A stretch of 64,000 nt of DNA, from sequence record OR062947.1. One strand, given 5' to 3'. The DNA comes from Escherichia phage 348Ecol098PP. The notes beneath the pieces are model-generated. The model was not told the origin of the DNA. It did no database searches and saw only the letters and a list, made by a program, of their open reading frames with translations. Each line of letters begins with the position of its first letter. Position 1 is the stretch's first letter. This document shows positions 2,914 through 16,785 of the stretch, piece by piece. The translations under genes were made by a program, and so were the position numbers.

Positions 2914-4731
2914 ATGATTAAAAATGAAATTAAGGTATTGTCAGATGTAGAACATATTAAGAAACGTAGTGGTATGTATATTGGTTCTTCTGCTAAAGAA
3001 GCACATGAGCGTTTTTTGTTTGGTAAATATCAACAAGTTGAATATGTTCCTGGTCTGGTTAAATTAATCGATGAGATTATTGACAACTCGGTTGATGAAG
3101 CTATTCGTACATCATTTAAGTTTGCAAATAAAATTGATGTGCAAATTAAAAATAATCAAGTTTCGGTGGAAGATAACGGACGTGGTATTCCTCAAGGTTT
3201 AGTTACCGACCAAACAGGTGAACAAATTCCTGGGCCTGTAGCAGCCTGGACTATTCCAAAGGCCGGTGGTAACTTTGGTGATGACTCTGAACGCAAGACT
3301 GGTGGTATGAACGGCGTCGGGAGTAGTTTAACTAATATCTTCTCTACGTTGTTTACAGGCATCACGTCAGATGGCGAAAATGAAATCACTGTTAACTGTT
3401 CAAACGGAATGGAAAACAAATCATGGTCTTCTAAGAAATCTAAAGGTAAAGGCACTAAAGTAATCTTCACTCCTGATTTCACTTCATTTGAAGAGCATAA
3501 TTTATCTCAAATTTATTTAGATATTACTTTAGACCGACTTCAAACATTGGCAGTCGTTTATCCTGATATCAAGTTCACATTTAATGGTAAAAAGGTTGAT
3601 GGTAATTTTAAACGATTTGCTAAACAATTTGGTGAAGATAACATCATTCAAGAAAATGATAAAGTCTCTATAGCATTCACAACATCACCAGATGGCTTCC
3701 GTCATTTAACTTATGTGAATAACATCCATACTAAAAATGGTGGCCATCATGTTGAATGTGTAATGGATGATATCTGCGAACATCTTTTGCCCGGTATTAA
3801 AAAGAAATATAAGGGTATTGAAGTCACTAAAGCTCGTGTTAAAGAATGCCTCACAATGTTGATGTTTATTAGAGACATGAGCAACATGCGTTTTGATTCT
3901 CAGACTAAAGAACGTTTAACGTCAACGTATGGTGATATTCGTAATCATATCCAATTAGATGCTAAGAAAATTGCTCAGGCACTTCTTAAAAACGAAGCCT
4001 TGATTATGCCTATTGTTGAAGCCGCATTAGCTCGTAAATTGGCGGCAGAAAAGGCTGCAGAAACTAAAGCAGCTAAAAAGGCAACTAAAGCTAAGGTTCA
4101 TAAACATATTAAAGCTAACCAATGTGGTAAAGATGCAGATACGACATTGTTCTTAACAGAAGGTGATTCTGCAATTGGTTATCTCATTGATGTTCGTGAC
4201 CGTGAACTACACGGCGGATTCCCATTACGTGGTAAGGTGATGAATAGCTGGGGTATGTCATATGCTGATATGATGAAGAACAAAGAGCTCTTTGATATCT
4301 GTGCTATCACGGGTCTTATTCTTGGTGAAAAGGCAGAGAATACGAACTATCGTAATATTGCAATTATGACCGATGCCGATCATGACGGTCTTGGAAGTAT
4401 CTATCCGGCTTTGCTTGCTTTCTTTAGTAATTGGCCTGAATTGTTTGAACAAGGACGTATTCGCTTTGTTAAAACACCTGTAATTATTGCACAAATTGGC
4501 AAAGCTCAAAAATGGTTTTATACTGTAGCTGAGTATGAAGAAGTTAAAGATACACTGCCTAAGCATAGTATTCGATACATCAAGGGATTAGGCTCCCTTG
4601 AAAAGTCAGAATATCGTGAAATGATTCAGAACCCTGTGTACGACGTAGTTAAACTTCCTGAAAATTGGAAAGAACTCTTTGAAATGTTGATGGGTGATGA
4701 TTCAGAACTTCGTAAAGAATGGATGTCCTAA
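2914..4731 (+). CDS. 39: DNA topoisomerase II large subunit, uninterrupted (T4 gp39 plus gp60 equivalent)
   Basis: 605-aa ORF with GHKL ATPase and Toprim motifs (NGRGIP, DADHDG); single ORF as recalled for T2-type phages, not split as in T4. Confidence 0.9.
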   Translation: MIKNEIKVLSDVEHIKKRSGMYIGSSAKEAHERFLFGKYQQVEYVPGLVKLIDEIIDNSVDEAIRTSFKFANKIDVQIKNNQVSVEDNGRGIPQGLVTDQTGEQIPGPVAAWTIPKAGGNFGDDSERKTGGMNGVGSSLTNIFSTLFTGITSDGENEITVNCSNGMENKSWSSKKSKGKGTKVIFTPDFTSFEEHNLSQIYLDITLDRLQTLAVVYPDIKFTFNGKKVDGNFKRFAKQFGEDNIIQENDKVSIAFTTSPDGFRHLTYVNNIHTKNGGHHVECVMDDICEHLLPGIKKKYKGIEVTKARVKECLTMLMFIRDMSNMRFDSQTKERLTSTYGDIRNHIQLDAKKIAQALLKNEALIMPIVEAALARKLAAEKAAETKAAKKATKAKVHKHIKANQCGKDADTTLFLTEGDSAIGYLIDVRDRELHGGFPLRGKVMNSWGMSYADMMKNKELFDICAITGLILGEKAENTNYRNIAIMTDADHDGLGSIYPALLAFFSNWPELFEQGRIRFVKTPVIIAQIGKAQKWFYTVAEYEEVKDTLPKHSIRYIKGLGSLEKSEYREMIQNPVYDVVKLPENWKELFEMLMGDDSELRKEWMS

Positions 4732-11821: not shown

Positions 11822-13147
11822 ATGCAATTGAATTCTCGTAATCTAAAAAGTATTATTGATAACGAAGCCTTAGCATATGCGATGTACACCGTTGAAAACC
11901 GTGCAATCCCAAACATGATTGATGGATTTAAGCCGGTTCAACGTTTTGTGGTTCATCGTGCGTTAGATTTGGCTCGTGGTAATAAAGAAAAATTTCATAA
12001 ACTTGCGTCAATTGCAGGAGGTGTTGCAGATTTAGGTTATCATCATGGCGAATCTTCTGCACAAGATGCAGGTGCATTGATGGCTAACACATGGAACAAC
12101 AACTATCCGTTGTTAGATGGCCAAGGCAACTTTGGTTCTAGAACAGTCCAAAAAGCTGCAGCATCTCGTTATATTTTTGCTCGTGTAAGTAAAAATTTCT
12201 ATAACGTATATAAAGATACTGAATATGCTCCAGCTCATGAAGATAAAGAACACATTCCACCAAAATTCTATCTTCCTATTATTCCGACAGTTCTTTTGAA
12301 TGGTGTCTCTGGTATTGCAACCGGTTACGCAACAAATATTCTGCCTCATAGTTTTAAATCAGTCAAAAAGGCTGTATTACAAGCTCTTCAAGGTAAAAAT
12401 GTCACTAAGCCAAAAGTTGAATTCCCGGAATTCCGTGGTGAAGTACATGAAGTTGATGGGCGTTATGAGATTCACGGAACATATAAGTTCACATCTCGCA
12501 CTCAAATGCAGATAACTGAAATCCCATATAAATTCGACCGTGAAACGTATGTGAGTAAGGTTCTTGACCCGTTGGAAGACAAAGGTCTAATCTCATGGGA
12601 AGATGATTGTGGTGAACACGGCTTTGGGTTTAAGGTGAAGTTCCGTAAAGAGTACTCGCTTCCTGATGATGAAGAGCTACGTCATGAAAAAATCATGAAA
12701 GATTTTAGTCTCATCGAACGTCGTTCACAAAACATCACAGTGATTAATGAAAAGGGTAAATTAGCAGTCTATGATAACGTAGTGGACTTAATCAAAGATT
12801 TTGTTGAAGTCCGTAAGACTTACGTTCAGAAACGTATTGACAACAAAATCCTTGAATCTGAAAAAGCATTTAAACTGGCTTTTGCTAAGGCACACTTCAT
12901 CAAAAAAGTTATTACAGGTGAAATTGTGATTCAGGGCAAGACCCGTAAAGCTTTGACTGAAGAGCTAACACAAATCGAAATGTATAAAGAACATGTCGAT
13001 AAACTGGTAGGTCTTAACATCTTCCATATCACTTCCGACGAAGCACGTAAACTAGCAGAAGAAGCTAAAGCTAAGAAAGAAGAAAATGAGTATTGGAAGT
13101 CTACTGATGTGGTAACTGAGTATGTTAAAGATTTGGAGGCTCTATGA
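11822..13147 (+). CDS. 52: DNA topoisomerase II medium subunit (GyrA-like)
   Basis: 441-aa ORF; size and position match T4 gp52 (442 aa) and sequence matches recalled gp52. Confidence 0.85.
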   Translation: MQLNSRNLKSIIDNEALAYAMYTVENRAIPNMIDGFKPVQRFVVHRALDLARGNKEKFHKLASIAGGVADLGYHHGESSAQDAGALMANTWNNNYPLLDGQGNFGSRTVQKAAASRYIFARVSKNFYNVYKDTEYAPAHEDKEHIPPKFYLPIIPTVLLNGVSGIATGYATNILPHSFKSVKKAVLQALQGKNVTKPKVEFPEFRGEVHEVDGRYEIHGTYKFTSRTQMQITEIPYKFDRETYVSKVLDPLEDKGLISWEDDCGEHGFGFKVKFRKEYSLPDDEELRHEKIMKDFSLIERRSQNITVINEKGKLAVYDNVVDLIKDFVEVRKTYVQKRIDNKILESEKAFKLAFAKAHFIKKVITGEIVIQGKTRKALTEELTQIEMYKEHVDKLVGLNIFHITSDEARKLAEEAKAKKEENEYWKSTDVVTEYVKDLEAL

Positions 13148-13248
13148 GCCTTGGAGTCGAGTTCTTGTTACTATGTATCTTTGCTGTTATTCTAGGCCTG
13201 GCGACAGGCTTAGCTATAGGTTTAATAGCAGCCCACTTTAAAAAGTAA
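13144..13248 (+). CDS. small membrane peptide (34 aa)
   Basis: MSLGVEFLLLCIFAVILGLATGLAIGLIAAHFKK; ATGA overlap with the gene 52 stop, followed by a terminator. Confidence 0.35.
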   Translation: MSLGVEFLLLCIFAVILGLATGLAIGLIAAHFKK

Positions 13249-13269
13249 GGAACCTTCGGGTTCCTTTTT
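13249..13269 (+). terminator. rho-independent terminator
   Basis: ggaaccTTCGggttcc followed by ttttt. Confidence 0.65.
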
Positions 13270-13290: not shown

Positions 13291-13319
13291 GTTTACATGT
13301 GCTTCAAACATGATATTAT
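13291..13319 (+). promoter_or_regulatory. T4-type early promoter (motA)
   Basis: GTTTAC at 13291-13296, 17-nt spacer, tattat at 13314-13319. Confidence 0.55.
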
Positions 13320-13358
13320 AGACCTATCAAAACAAAACAACCGAATTGGAGAAATAAA

Positions 13359-13991
13359 ATGTCTAAAGTTGCTTACATCATCAAAGCTTCCGAAAACGCT
13401 CTTAATGAAAAAACTGCTGCAATAATGGTTTACATCATTAAGAACAACTTCACCACTGCTGCCAATGTCCGTGAAGCTCTGGAAGCGGAATACAATGCAT
13501 CGGTTGTTAACTCTAACATTGGTGTATTGATTAAGAAAGGTTTAGTCGAAAAATCTGGTGATGGACTTATAGCAACAGGCGAAGCAATGGATATTATCCA
13601 AAAAGCTGCAGACCTCTTTGCCCAAGAAAATGCTCCAGAACTTCTTCAGAAACGTAACACTAGAAAAGCACGTGGAGTTACTCCTGAAATGCATGAATTA
13701 GCAAACTTTGTTTTTGAAAATATTAAAGATAAAGTTGAAGTTAAAGAAATCGGTGAAAACCGTAGTAACTTGGAAGTTCGATTTGCAAAACGAGTTCTAG
13801 GTATTCGTCAGATCGAAATTCGTCGAGATGGTTCTCTTAGAATCTTTGCATACAACATGTCAGAAACTGAATCAAAGCTGTTTACTTCTCTTGAAAATGA
13901 TGTTAAGATTAAGATCGGTGGTAAATATACTTACATTGACTTCCCTAATGTGTCCAAAGAAATCATTACCCTTGTAACTAACGTACTGTGA
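13359..13991 (+). CDS. motA: middle-transcription activator MotA
   Basis: 210-aa ORF; MSKVAYIIKAS...VVNSNIGVLIKKGLVEKSGDGLI.TGEA...AQENAPELL.KR.TRKAR matches recalled T4 MotA. Confidence 0.85.
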   Translation: MSKVAYIIKASENALNEKTAAIMVYIIKNNFTTAANVREALEAEYNASVVNSNIGVLIKKGLVEKSGDGLIATGEAMDIIQKAADLFAQENAPELLQKRNTRKARGVTPEMHELANFVFENIKDKVEVKEIGENRSNLEVRFAKRVLGIRQIEIRRDGSLRIFAYNMSETESKLFTSLENDVKIKIGGKYTYIDFPNVSKEIITLVTNVL

Positions 13992-14001
13992 GGAATACAT
14001 A

Positions 14002-14331
14002 ATGAATAAGCTGAATATTATTAACGAACTTCGTAAATGTGCAGAACCTACTCAGGAAGGATGGGATATTTGGTACCACGGGGCTTATTTAGGGACAATT
14101 GTAAAGATTAAAGCAGGCCAATATATGGTTATTCGTGAAAATAATGACGCACCATTTGGCCTTCGTAAAAACTACATGGCAGCGATCAGTTCATTTGTTG
14201 ATGCCGCTTACGAAATCTATAAAGAAGATTATAAAGAATATCAGCAGTCACAACCGGTTATTCGTTCGATCGGTGTAAATAAACAAGCACAAAAATCTAT
14301 TTGGCAACGTATTAAGGAATGGTTTAAATGA
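14002..14331 (+). CDS. hypothetical protein
   Basis: 109-aa ORF with gagga RBS. Confidence 0.55.
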
Positions 14332-14789
14332 AATCATTTAAAGAACGTTTAGAGCTATTAGATTTGGCCTTGTCTCGTGAGACTCCTGAAAGTCTAGCAG
14401 AAAAATTCCAGTCCTACGGTTATAATTATTCTGCTGATGATGTAATGAATGAAGTTCCTGAAATCTGTTGGCAAACGTGCTATTGGAATAATGACCAAAA
14501 AGTTCAACGTGTTATAGTATGTGCAGCTAATAGGTTTAAATTGAAGAGTGGTGGAACTCTGGTTATTCCTGGAGTTCGTCATTACTCTAAAGATATGGCT
14601 GAAGTACTTGATATAGTTGGTCCTCAATTAGTCTCGCAACAAGTTTGTGGCGACGACCAAGGCTTTATTGACCAATACTCTAATTACTGGACTCGTGAAG
14701 AAGCAATGATTATTGCAACGTATGCTGGACAGGTACGTATTGAACGTGGCGGAAGCGAGAAAGAACTTTATTCAGAGGACCTTTATTAA
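14328..14789 (+). CDS. hypothetical Cys-rich protein
   Basis: 153-aa ORF, ATGA overlap with the upstream stop. Confidence 0.55.
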
Positions 14790-15070
14790 TGAATATTAAA
14801 CAACTCCAGAAAGATGCTATTGAATCACGTATCCAAGATATCAAACGTCTTAATCATATGATGGAAGAAAACTATGGTATGTATGCTAATCAGCCTGGTT
14901 GGGACGCTTTAGACCATCCTTATTTGGTTAATTTATGTAAAGGTGATACGTTAGCAATTATTCGTGATGGGTTAAAACCTTTCTTGCGTGACATGTATAT
15001 TAAAATGAACGAAGAAATTATTAGCTCGTTGCAATATCAATTAAGGAAATTAGATGATGAGAATAATTGA
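14789..15070 (+). CDS. hypothetical protein (size and position compatible with arn, unverified)
   Basis: 93-aa ORF, TAATG overlap with the upstream stop. Confidence 0.45.
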   Translation: MNIKQLQKDAIESRIQDIKRLNHMMEENYGMYANQPGWDALDHPYLVNLCKGDTLAIIRDGLKPFLRDMYIKMNEEIISSLQYQLRKLDDENN

Positions 15071-15272
15071 TTCTAAAGTAGATTATTTTAATTCTGTTAA
15101 TGATAAGAATAAAGCTTTAATTCGCCACTTTATTACTGAGATGGGATATACAGACTCTAAAGATTTGAAAGAGCACATTATCGAATGTTCTGTGGCTAAA
15201 AAGTTTTCTTTTACCGATAAATGTTTAAATGAGGTTATAAATCATTATGAACAATCTTGTAGCAAAACATGA
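15054..15272 (+). CDS. hypothetical protein
   Basis: 72-aa ORF. Confidence 0.45.
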   Translation: MMRIIDSKVDYFNSVNDKNKALIRHFITEMGYTDSKDLKEHIIECSVAKKFSFTDKCLNEVINHYEQSCSKT

Positions 15273-15355
15273 TTTCAATAAGGCTTCTGTTCATAAGGAC
15301 AAGAAGAAATCAGAACTTCAATCTAAACGTAAACAAAAACATAAGGGTAAAGACT

Positions 15356-15655
15356 ATGCTTACTAAAATCAAAGAAAATCCTGCAACTGAACTTGTTATT
15401 CGATGCGAAGAACTTGCAGAGCTTTATCAGGTTAACCGAGAAGTATATCGTAGTGTTGTTGCAGATATGGCAGACGAAGTATGTTCTCGTATTCCTTTTA
15501 GTGTTGATTTCAATCAAATGAAGCCTGGTGAAATCACTATCGTCTTTGGTTCTGACTATACTGAAGAACGGGCTCTTAATGTCCTAGAATATGAAATGTC
15601 ATTCTTTGACATACAGGATTACATTGATAGTTATAAGGAACGATATGAGTCATAA
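15356..15655 (+). CDS. hypothetical protein
   Basis: ATG at 15356 after aaggg RBS; the track ORF starts at 15269 but has no RBS there. Confidence 0.45.
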   Translation: MLTKIKENPATELVIRCEELAELYQVNREVYRSVVADMADEVCSRIPFSVDFNQMKPGEITIVFGSDYTEERALNVLEYEMSFFDIQDYIDSYKERYES

Positions 15656-15806
15656 TCTTCAGAACGTAGTAGAGGCCGAACGTGAGCGTGAGGCTTTAGT
15701 CTATAATGAACTATTAGTTCCGTTCTTGGCCTTACACTCGTACGAACAGGAAGACTATACCAATTACGTTAAAAGCGTAGAAAAAGCCGTTTACAATCAA
15801 CACTGA
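15645..15806 (+). CDS. hypothetical small protein
   Basis: 53-aa ORF, ATG at 15645 overlapping the upstream gene end. Confidence 0.35.
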   Translation: MSHNLQNVVEAEREREALVYNELLVPFLALHSYEQEDYTNYVKSVEKAVYNQH

Positions 15807-15852
15807 TAATGGTACTATACTCATATCAATTAAGTGGAATGAATAAAACGTT

Positions 15853-16125
15853 ATGAATAAAGACATTGAAATCGTACGTGAAATTATTACTATTGCTTCT
15901 ATTTTGATTAAATTCTCTAGGGAAGATATTGTTGAAGACCGAGCAAGTTTCATCGGATTCTTGAATGAGATTGGAATTAAAAAAGATGGTCGGCAGCTAA
16001 ATCAGAATTCTTTTAGAAAACTAATTACAAATTTAACTGCCGAAGAAAAGAAAACACTGATTAGTGAATTCAATGAAGGTTTTGAAAATATTTATCGTCA
16101 TTTAGCGATGTATTCTAACAACTAA
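15853..16125 (+). CDS. asiA: anti-sigma-70 factor AsiA
   Basis: 90-aa ORF; REIIT.ASILIKFSREDIVE.RA.FI.FLNEIG...KLNQNSFRK matches recalled T4 AsiA. Confidence 0.85.
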   Translation: MNKDIEIVREIITIASILIKFSREDIVEDRASFIGFLNEIGIKKDGRQLNQNSFRKLITNLTAEEKKTLISEFNEGFENIYRHLAMYSNN

Positions 16126-16785
16126 TTATTTAGCCCTTCCTAGTATTCGGACCGCTTGGTTGCATATAGCCGCTAAGCGATCTTCCTCAAGTATATTATT
16201 CCCCTTATACCAATACATCGTCACAGTTCCAGCATAGATGTTATCCAAATTAAAGTATGGACAACTATACATATAAGAAAGTTCGGCAGTTTTAGATTTT
16301 GTAGGCAAAAATGCAAATTCTGATTTAGACGAGAAATGACGGCCACTTAAATGAATTATATATTCATTGGCCGTTTTATCCACCGGGAACCCCCCAAGGG
16401 ACTTTTCAGAAATTGTGCTAGGCAGTTTGCCTTCATAAGCTATAAGGTCGACGAAATAATTTAAGTTTTTAGGTCTGAAAGAATACACAGCACTAAAATC
16501 TGCACCAGATGAGATATGAACTATTTGCAGTTGTTCTAGAGCCGCAGATTCAAAACGTAAAGCTCGTTCTTTTTGGATTATTTCAGTATAAGTATCATAC
16601 TTAGATCTTACATAATAATCCAGCAAAATACTTCCTTTGTACCATATTAGTGCCATTAGGAACAAAAGAATAATTACCGCTACTCGGGACATTAAAACCT
16701 TTCCAGTAGCGTTATCTTTGAAAATACGATCTAGCAACCCAAATAGAATATCACTAGGCGAAAATGACACTTTTGGTGTTGCCAT
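16126..16785 (-). CDS. t: holin T
   Basis: 219-aa ORF; ISFSPSDILFG.LDR.FKDNATGKVL.SRVAV...SCPYFNLDNIYAGT.TMYWY...RILGRAK matches recalled T4 holin. Confidence 0.9.
   Translation of the reverse strand: MATPKVSFSPSDILFGLLDRIFKDNATGKVLMSRVAVIILLFLMALIWYKGSILLDYYVRSKYDTYTEIIQKERALRFESAALEQLQIVHISSGADFSAVYSFRPKNLNYFVDLIAYEGKLPSTISEKSLGGFPVDKTANEYIIHLSGRHFSSKSEFAFLPTKSKTAELSYMYSCPYFNLDNIYAGTVTMYWYKGNNILEEDRLAAICNQAVRILGRAK

Follow-up and report, generated by a model that had tools for sequence, protein, structure and literature searches.

We analyzed a 64,000-nucleotide (nt) stretch of DNA from Escherichia phage 348Ecol098PP (sequence record OR062947.1), referred to below as the window, and focused on the interval between motA and asiA, where six tightly packed small open reading frames (ORFs) of 53 to 153 amino acids (aa) with overlapping starts and stops lie at positions 13992-15806, as the original prediction for this DNA had described. 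This interval holds the arn operon that T-even phages conserve, in its Mosigvirus (RB69-type) form; the locus is ordinary and long annotated, and the reading that we favour for the whole of it, and consider likely, is that of a Mosigvirus arn operon with the gene slots of T4 and with a divergent Arn-type DNA mimic encoded at 15356-15655. The six ORFs are named ORF1 to ORF6 in their order from motA to asiA. At the DNA level, region 13300-16200 shares 99.7% identity with Escherichia phage HY126 and 96-98% with many genomes of Mosigvirus (the RB69 group), including ATK47 and RB69; judged by this identity, the source of the window is a Mosigvirus T-even phage.

The cluster had been described as expanded relative to T4, which is contradicted by the T4 RefSeq annotation, where the interval between motA and asiA also holds six genes (arn.4, arn.3, arn.2, arn.1, arn, and asiA.1), and by an identical layout in RB69. 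BLASTP paired the products of the window and of T4 one-to-one and in order (ORF1 with arn.4, ORF2 with arn.3, ORF3 with arn.2, ORF4 with arn.1, and ORF6 with asiA.1), leaving ORF5 in the arn slot, and the distance from motA to asiA is 1865 nt in the window, 1866 nt in RB69, and 1835 nt in T4. The arrangement by which an arn operon is recognized, namely the co-oriented genes arn.4-arn.3-arn.2-arn.1-arn(-asiA.1) flanked by motA and asiA, is thus present in the window, and the same order was found in 45 T4-like loci. In phage T2, arn.4 to arn are treated as a single middle transcript, and arn.1 to arn.4 are without known function according to the same June 2026 preprint (bioRxiv 10.64898/2026.06.19.733364). 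The window would carry seven tightly packed and co-transcribed small genes: arn.4, arn.3, arn.2, arn.1, a gene for a DUF7230 peptide (described below), the divergent arn, and asiA.1.

A divergent Arn homologue in the arn slot

Four lines of evidence together establish that ORF5 is homologous to T4 Arn: a bridging protein, a family profile, a profile-profile alignment with hhalign, and an AlphaFold model. When 1.84 billion representative proteins were searched with ORF5, there were just four matches, one of them the metagenomic protein P0128 (91 aa, 30% identity, E = 1.9e-6), which shares 33% identity with T4 Arn across 90 residues (pairwise E = 7e-11). The PHROG families of ORF5 and T4 Arn are phrog_8202 and phrog_3151, respectively; P0128 matches both, and phrog_8202 is the second-best family of T4 Arn. 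A profile built from ORF5-type sequences only, with P0128 and Arn left out, selected T4 Arn (3WX4_A) as the best of 177,635 PDB sequences (E = 6.7e-4), with positions 13-91 of the profile aligned to residues 11-92 of 3WX4_A, nearly the full length, and hhalign matched the ORF5-family profile to the T4 Arn family with 90.3% probability (E = 1.5e-6, 81 columns). Sequence homology between the two proteins extends over the whole domain, and the two align collinearly from end to end, with small gaps only.

The AlphaFold2 model of ORF5 (mean predicted local distance difference test score, pLDDT, 92.7) has the Arn fold: Foldseek placed 3WX4 at the top of the PDB (E = 4e-4, probability 1.00, template modelling (TM) scores 0.79/0.80, root-mean-square deviation 2.4 A over 97 columns), and 3WX4 was the sole significant PDB neighbour, the next match having a TM score of 0.49. 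Both proteins are strongly acidic (net charge -11 and isoelectric point (pI) 4.3 for ORF5; -9 and 4.55 for T4 Arn), and every member of the ORF5 family has a net charge between -6 and -18. The acidity is shared column by column, with 8 acidic columns co-aligned against 3.4 expected (p = 0.006, permutation), the hydrophobic columns co-align as well (p < 1e-4, permutation), and the 2 proteins have in common the C-terminal motif (D/E)(Y/F)x(I/L)xDY(I/F).

A translated search (tblastn) separated two non-overlapping populations, T4-type Arn in 485 records, all at least 88% identical, versus the ORF5 type in 178 records, which are at least 80% identical in Mosigvirus and about 32% identical in Gaprivervirus. 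The Pfam model of Arn, DM_Arn (PF22134), consists of the near-identical Tequatrovirus sequences of these 485 records. With a combined ORF5/Arn family hidden Markov model (HMM), weaker members were recovered from the equivalent slot in further T4-like genera (E = 8e-10 to 3e-5), so that Arn appears as a rapidly diverging positional family across the Tevenvirinae, found in Tequatrovirus, Mosigvirus, and Gaprivervirus and with weaker members elsewhere, rather than as a speciality of Tequatrovirus. Within Mosigvirus, ORF5 and ORF6 have the most amino acid changes of the cluster (91-96% identity versus 98-100% for their neighbours), yet they carry no signal of positive selection, because the ratio of nonsynonymous to synonymous change (omega) is only 0.1-0.24 despite the highest nonsynonymous divergence (pN) in the cluster. 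The assignment of the RB69ORF259c family, to which ORF5 belongs, to the Arn superfamily is new here and computational.

Several observations weigh against this reading. ORF5 and T4 Arn are 18% identical; ORF5 has no match to PF22134 at E ≤ 10, and even P0128 scores 16 bits, under the gathering cutoff of 26, where the T4 Arn control reaches 186.7 bits. A plain phmmer search of ORF5 against the PDB did not recover 3WX4, and the fold match is not fully independent, because T4-type Arn was present in the modelling alignment and AlphaFold was trained on the PDB. As to function, T4 Arn also blocks PUA-Cal-HAD, and the N70S substitution, the T2 state, abolishes that block (PMC12871103, a 2026 preprint); N70 of T4 Arn aligns with T69 of ORF5, and since the Arn proteins of T4 and T2 differ in this activity by one substitution, function is not transferable across 18% identity. 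A MotA box correctly spaced to a -10 element was not found inside the cluster. A separate candidate, the tandem dimer of the PP7 coat protein, was the top phmmer match of ORF5 (E = 2e-4); it consisted of two 11-bit segments on a duplicated chain, was judged to be due to chance, and was displaced by 3WX4 once the family profile was used.

T4 Arn is described as acting by DNA mimicry, inhibiting the McrBC restriction of non-glucosylated hmC DNA and binding H-NS (review PMC12707154). Homology, fold, and charge point to ORF5 as a divergent Arn-type DNA mimic with anti-defence activity: the protein would adopt the Arn alpha/beta fold with a dense negative surface and, as an acidic decoy, would fill the DNA-binding site of a host protein that binds DNA and belongs to a defence system or to the nucleoid. 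Given the 18% identity, its range of targets probably differs from that of T4 Arn. The suggestion that early or middle small genes at this locus include an anti-restriction function may therefore hold for one gene, the Arn-family member supported by profile, hhalign, and fold, while for the rest of the cluster the analysis gave no evidence either way.

An alternative compatible with the divergent-Arn reading would make the cluster mainly a module for host takeover or transcription remodelling, directed at the host nucleoid, RNA polymerase, or RNA metabolism, in which the Arn-like protein acts through H-NS. The two flanking genes encode middle-transcription factors, the H-NS binding of T4 Arn (review PMC12707154) fits the proposal, the DUF7230 peptide and Arn.4 are strongly basic, and arn.4, arn.3, and the DUF7230 gene are present in every T4-like locus with the motA-asiA context, unlike anti-defence cargo, which is typically patchy. 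However, no DNA-, RNA-, or RNA polymerase-binding domain is detectable in any gene of the cluster, and “large polyvalent protein associated domain” proteins contain the core of Arn.3 as well. Polyvalent proteins are reportedly thought, following Iyer et al. in 2017, to act in conflict with host defences. We regard such a module as possible but doubtful.

It is considerably harder to sustain that ORF5 is unrelated cargo that has replaced arn in a variable slot and resembles Arn by convergence of small acidic alpha/beta proteins. The stretch between the DUF7230 ORF and asiA is indeed the one part of the cluster with clear variation, ranging among loci L009-L059 from about 250 nt, with an asiA.1-like ORF only, to about 1,100 nt, with three ORFs, and holding several unrelated small ORF families besides the Arn-like one, which differ between T4-like genera; the failure of ORF5 against DM_Arn and its low direct identity to T4 Arn also suit replacement. 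Against convergence stand the full-length collinear alignment, the shared C-terminal motif, the significant similarity of P0128 to both proteins, and the selection of 3WX4 from the whole PDB set by a profile free of Arn, and we consider the cargo explanation quite unlikely. The view that the 93-aa ORF at 14789-15070 is arn amid novel anti-defence genes in a cluster expanded over T4 drew on its size (93 versus 92 aa), on the general neighbourhood, and on GenBank records that call some arn.1 to arn.4 homologues “anti-restriction nuclease,” but it can practically be set aside, given the six annotated genes of T4, the lack of similarity of this ORF to Arn and its 41% identity to T4 Arn.2 (E = 1e-20), the propagation of those labels from the gene names arn.1 to arn.4, and the position of the Arn homologue two genes further on.

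Gene content of the interval

The features of the interval and its flanks are as follows, with E-values given after family names.

13359-13991, + strand: motA, middle-transcription activator, left flank (Pfam MotA_activ 5e-39, MotCF 2e-8; 51% identity to T4 MotA)
14002-14331, + strand: arn.4 orthologue (ORF1), 109 aa, full-length form, basic, pI 9.2 (phrog_1594 1e-52)
14328-14789, + strand: arn.3 orthologue (ORF2), 153 aa (phrog_839 3e-70; 76% identity to T4 Arn.3)
14789-15070, + strand: arn.2 orthologue (ORF3), 93 aa (phrog_1844 1e-40; 41% identity to T4 Arn.2, 1e-20)
15054-15272, + strand: arn.1 orthologue (ORF4), long form, 72 aa (phrog_4452 1e-39, full length)
15247-15366, + strand: DUF7230 peptide, 39 aa, lysine-rich, seventh gene (Pfam DUF7230, phrog_1359)
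15356-15655, + strand: divergent Arn homologue (ORF5), 99 aa, RB69ORF259c family, in the arn slot (phrog_8202; profile and fold match to 3WX4)
15645-15806, + strand: asiA.1 orthologue (ORF6), 53 aa, acidic (phrog_5245 about 1e-30; 30% identity to T4 AsiA.1)
15853-16125, + strand: asiA, anti-sigma-70 factor, right flank (Pfam AsiA 2e-32; 73% identity to T4 AsiA)

In the wider order, gp52 (11822-13147) and a 34-aa membrane peptide precede motA, and asiA is followed by holin t, gp38, and gp37 on the opposite strand. The six ORFs are co-oriented, neighbours overlap by 1-17 nt, a Shine-Dalgarno-like sequence lies 5' of each, and each matches a PHROG family (E about 1e-30 to 3e-70); the starts of ORF5 and ORF6 were corrected on the PHROG alignments and the N-termini of homologues. 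All six are under purifying selection, both in comparison with T4 (omega about 0.1 for alignable orthologues, with 0.09-0.18 for the conserved genes and for two N-terminal extensions, those of Arn.4 and Arn.1) and among close relatives (omega 0-0.26 across the cluster within Mosigvirus). They are genuine genes rather than chance ORFs and are translationally coupled. No ORF with family support was found on the minus strand or in other frames of the region, apart from the seventh gene, and the region contains no Rfam family and no meaningful repeats.

The count of six overlooked that seventh conserved ORF, which lies in a third reading frame at 15247-15366, overlaps arn.1 with its 5' end and ORF5 with its 3' end, and encodes in 39 codons the peptide MNNLVAKHDFNKASVHKDKKKSELQSKRKQKHKGKDYAY. 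The peptide exceeds the gathering threshold of DUF7230 (Pfam PF23876; 49.3 bits versus 27, E about 5e-13), as does the T4 copy (44.9 bits), and belongs to phrog_1359 (4e-22). Each of the 45 T4-like loci with motA-asiA context gave a tblastn match, loci without arn.1, an Arn-like gene, or asiA.1 included, and the peptide is matched in 1,267 phage records. By a crude parse, 38 of the 45 loci have an ATG-initiated full-length ORF, amounting to 23 distinct peptides; six have no in-frame ATG and one has a 17-aa fragment. The six loci without an in-frame ATG are L013, L014, L018, L019, L038, and L044, for which an alternative start or fusion to the upstream ORF could be the explanation. The T4 copy, at 161580-161699 of NC_000866 (2081-2200 on the minus strand of the extracted T4 locus, L001), is 79% identical, and T4 RefSeq leaves an 83-nt stretch at this ORF as intergenic; RB69 likewise has no annotation there. 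Differences between T4 and the window fall mostly at third codon positions (4, 3, and 11 at the first, second, and third positions; omega 0.10-0.12), and close relatives show 0 nonsynonymous and 2-4 synonymous changes. This substitution pattern and the N-termini of homologues contradict an N-terminally extended ORF5 in place of the DUF7230 frame. The DUF7230 gene is thus a core 39-aa gene absent from the T4 reference annotation, and a literature search found no paper naming DUF7230. Structures of ArfA exist, and a role of the peptide in ArfA-like ribosome rescue or ribosome binding was considered for its lysine-rich tail; it was dropped on finding no PDB match at E ≤ 10 and DUF7230 as the sole Pfam family.

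Arn.3 (ORF2) consists of a variable helical N-terminal module (residues about 1-40) and a conserved alpha/beta core. Its 130 homologues carry the precomputed assignment PF26092, as does the 97%-identical protein P0007, and the membership of ORF2 follows by homology and not from an HMM score. The core occurs in about 1,600 phage records, among them jumbo phages of Pseudomonas and Serratia and phages of Salmonella, Klebsiella, Aeromonas, and Acinetobacter. Contrary to the description of this protein as Cys-rich and of the cluster's other ORFs as free of recognizable motifs, Arn.3 has only 4 Cys (2.6%), none in an invariant column, and an alignment of 59 diverse sequences has 10 invariant columns (A66, A67, R84, H85, Q111, G112, F113, D115, R123, and Q135), which include the motifs R84-H85 and Q111-G112-F113-x-D115, as well as a near-invariant C-terminal L-x-S-E-x-L-Y. 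All motifs of the family (AANR, RH, QGFxD, R..EA, GQ, and L.SE.LY), whose columns are invariant or at least 90% conserved among the 59 sequences, are held by ORF2, and the pattern suggests a catalytic or ligand-binding site. The AlphaFold2 model (pLDDT 89.7, predicted TM score 0.81) had no fold match in the PDB (best E = 0.29, TM score 0.22) and in BFVD its only matches were uncharacterized phage proteins and, with weaker scores, a domain found in “large polyvalent protein associated domain” proteins. Arn.3 has the look of an enzyme or ligand-binding protein whose fold has no PDB counterpart.

Residues 1-30 of Arn.3 (14328-14417) match positions 1-30 of the 77 positions of the PADLOC model PD-T4-9_B (E = 1.8e-7), which is also matched by 11 of the 59 homologues, all with the T-even-type N-terminus (best E = 1.2e-9). 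The system PD-T4-9 is CmdTAC, made up of toxin, antitoxin, and chaperone, by which infection with T4 is aborted, and its component B is listed as an “unknown protein” (PMC9519451); as the second gene of the three-gene PD-T4-9 operon, it is presumably the CmdA antitoxin. Arn.3 itself is not CmdA, as judged by the partial match and by the lack of genes for CmdT or a SecB-like chaperone nearby. In follow-up searches for the PD-T4-9_B segment, there was no DNA similarity in 5,426 Escherichia coli genomes, a motif scan of the genome contigs gave two chance matches, and tblastn against plasmids gave nothing below E = 7. A two-part counter-defence protein, in which an antitoxin-mimicking or decoy N-terminus is joined to the enzyme-like core and the DUF7230 peptide serves as a further effector of the operon, would be an unlikely interpretation.

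The C-terminal 68 aa of Arn.4 (ORF1) share 75% identity with T4 Arn.4, and the C-terminal 42 aa of Arn.1 (ORF4) share 74% with T4 Arn.1; among six diverse homologues of Arn.1, 26 columns are invariant. AsiA.1 (ORF6) starts with MSHNL, as does T4 AsiA.1; across 32 loci, the family has a conserved MSHNLxxV N-terminus and variable tails, with lengths of 50-124 aa. Searches of Pfam, NCBIfam, and the PDB found no relatives of Arn.4, Arn.2, Arn.1, or AsiA.1. Matches of the Arn.4, Arn.2, and Arn.1 profiles in the PDB to Pumilio (E = 0.005; sub-threshold helical segments) and polyhedrin (E = 4) were not credible, a helix-turn-helix-like reading of Arn.1 made by eye was without support, and PADLOC and Pfam matches far below thresholds (REase_II, over 31 aa at E = 0.002; Hp1; KapB; DUF4276; and DUF2145) were ignored.

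The contig IMGVR_UViG_2974739009_000001 (L006, 2017-4750) joins Mosigvirus-type motA and arn.3 (99%) to T4-type arn.2, arn, and asiA.1 (93-98%), implying recombination within the operon, with its breakpoint between arn.3 and arn.2. L008 is a further mosaic, in which arn.4 and arn.3 form a divergent segment (81-88%) of a locus otherwise 98-100% identical.

T4 gene starts, ArcZ/RNase E control, and promoters

Two stretches that are intergenic in the T4 annotation correspond to coding sequence in the window. The 133-nt gap between T4 motA and arn.4 is the counterpart of the N-terminal 41 codons of Arn.4 (14002-14124; 2545-2667 on the reverse complement of L001), with 85% aa identity, pN 0.10, and synonymous divergence (pS) 0.78 between the window and the T4 “intergenic” DNA, and the 70-nt gap between arn.2 and arn.1 is the counterpart of the N-terminal 29 codons of Arn.1 (15054-15140; 3609-3695 on the reverse complement of L001), with 69% identity and omega 0.18. 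The start of arn.4 is ATG in the window and in the Tequatrovirus contig L017 and reads ATA in T4, and for the long Arn.1, T4 has an in-frame TTG preceded by AAGGTG, which would be its start. The sequences thus indicate that the T4 annotations of Arn.4 and Arn.1 are probably truncated and that the two “intergenic regions” are probably coding.

These probable N-termini and the DUF7230 gene bear on the interpretation of a recently described control region. In T2, the small RNA ArcZ pairs with arn.2 at +285 to +294, and an RNase E motif, GcAUU, lies 11 nt upstream of the annotated ATG of arn.1 (bioRxiv 10.64898/2026.06.19.733364). The T4 equivalents are CCAGGGAAAT and GCATT, and CCAGGGAAAT is complementary to the ArcZ segment ATTTCCCTGG, the identity of ArcZ having been confirmed with Rfam in E. 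coli. The ArcZ site of T4 and the region of the candidate TTG start of the long Arn.1 overlap. The window lacks both elements: CCAGGGAAAT does not occur within 2 mismatches anywhere in 13991-15860, and the position of the RNase E motif reads CCACT, through synonymous changes in Arg-His codons. The phage is therefore predicted not to use ArcZ/RNase E control as T2 does. In a scan of duplex energies with ArcZ, the real sequence scored no better than shuffled versions.

A consensus scan identified a sigma-70-like promoter 5' of motA at 13292-13319 on the + strand (TTTACA-16-TATTAT with TG, 10 of 12 consensus matches), possibly an early promoter whose transcripts could read through into the cluster; the call is tentative because promoter-like sites are fewer in the region than in shuffled sequence. 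A second promoter-like sequence, TTTACA-17-TACTAT, lies near asiA at 15790-15818. Between the gp52 operon and the promoter-like site of motA, a perfect GC-rich palindromic hairpin, AAGGAACC-CGAA-GGTTCCTT, is followed by a T-run (hairpin at 13247-13266), and ATK47 has a rho-independent terminator annotated at the equivalent place.

Database labels and relation to known systems

The homologue of ORF5 is labelled “hypothetical protein” in all Mosigvirus records listed (178 records matched), and GenBank pipelines often label homologues of arn.1 to arn.4 “anti-restriction nuclease,” apparently after the gene names, so that counts of anti-defence genes inherit both errors. The annotation of HY126 includes the 39-aa ORF and omits arn.1. 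The recognition of these mis-propagated labels, the DUF7230 micro-gene, and the likely mis-annotated N-termini of T4 Arn.4 and Arn.1 are likewise new here and computational only. As one substitution changes the target of Arn between T4 and T2, the divergent Arn alleles form a ready panel for questions about the targets of DNA mimics.

Among the closest known systems is the RB69 locus (AY303349: arn.4, arn.3, arn.2, arn.1, RB69ORF259c, RB69ORF258c, and asiA), which has identical architecture and 94-100% protein identity; its annotation leaves ORF259c and ORF258c as hypothetical and does not include the 39-aa ORF, and there is otherwise no substantial difference from the window. The arn operon of T4 and T2 is equal in flanks, gene order, and number of slots, with arn.4, arn.3, and arn.1 at 74-76% identity and arn.2 at 41%, whereas the products of the arn and asiA.1 slots of the window have diverged to 18% and 26-30% identity. 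In the T4 RefSeq record, Arn.4 and Arn.1 are truncated and preceded by “intergenic” DNA, whereas the window has intact, ATG-initiated long forms.

DNA-mimic families have independent origins (review PMC12707154). T7 Ocr, ArdA, and lambda Gam, which inhibit host proteins that bind DNA, are small, strongly acidic, and expressed early, and ORF5 may resemble them in action, but they are not homologous to ORF5, and none of them surfaced in the sequence or fold searches with it. T4 Arn (PDB 3WX4; PF22134) differs from ORF5 in sequence, with ORF5 under the Pfam threshold and T69 standing opposite the critical N70, and the 2 proteins are alike in operon slot, length (99 versus 92 aa), acidity, predicted fold (TM score 0.79), and C-terminal DY motif.

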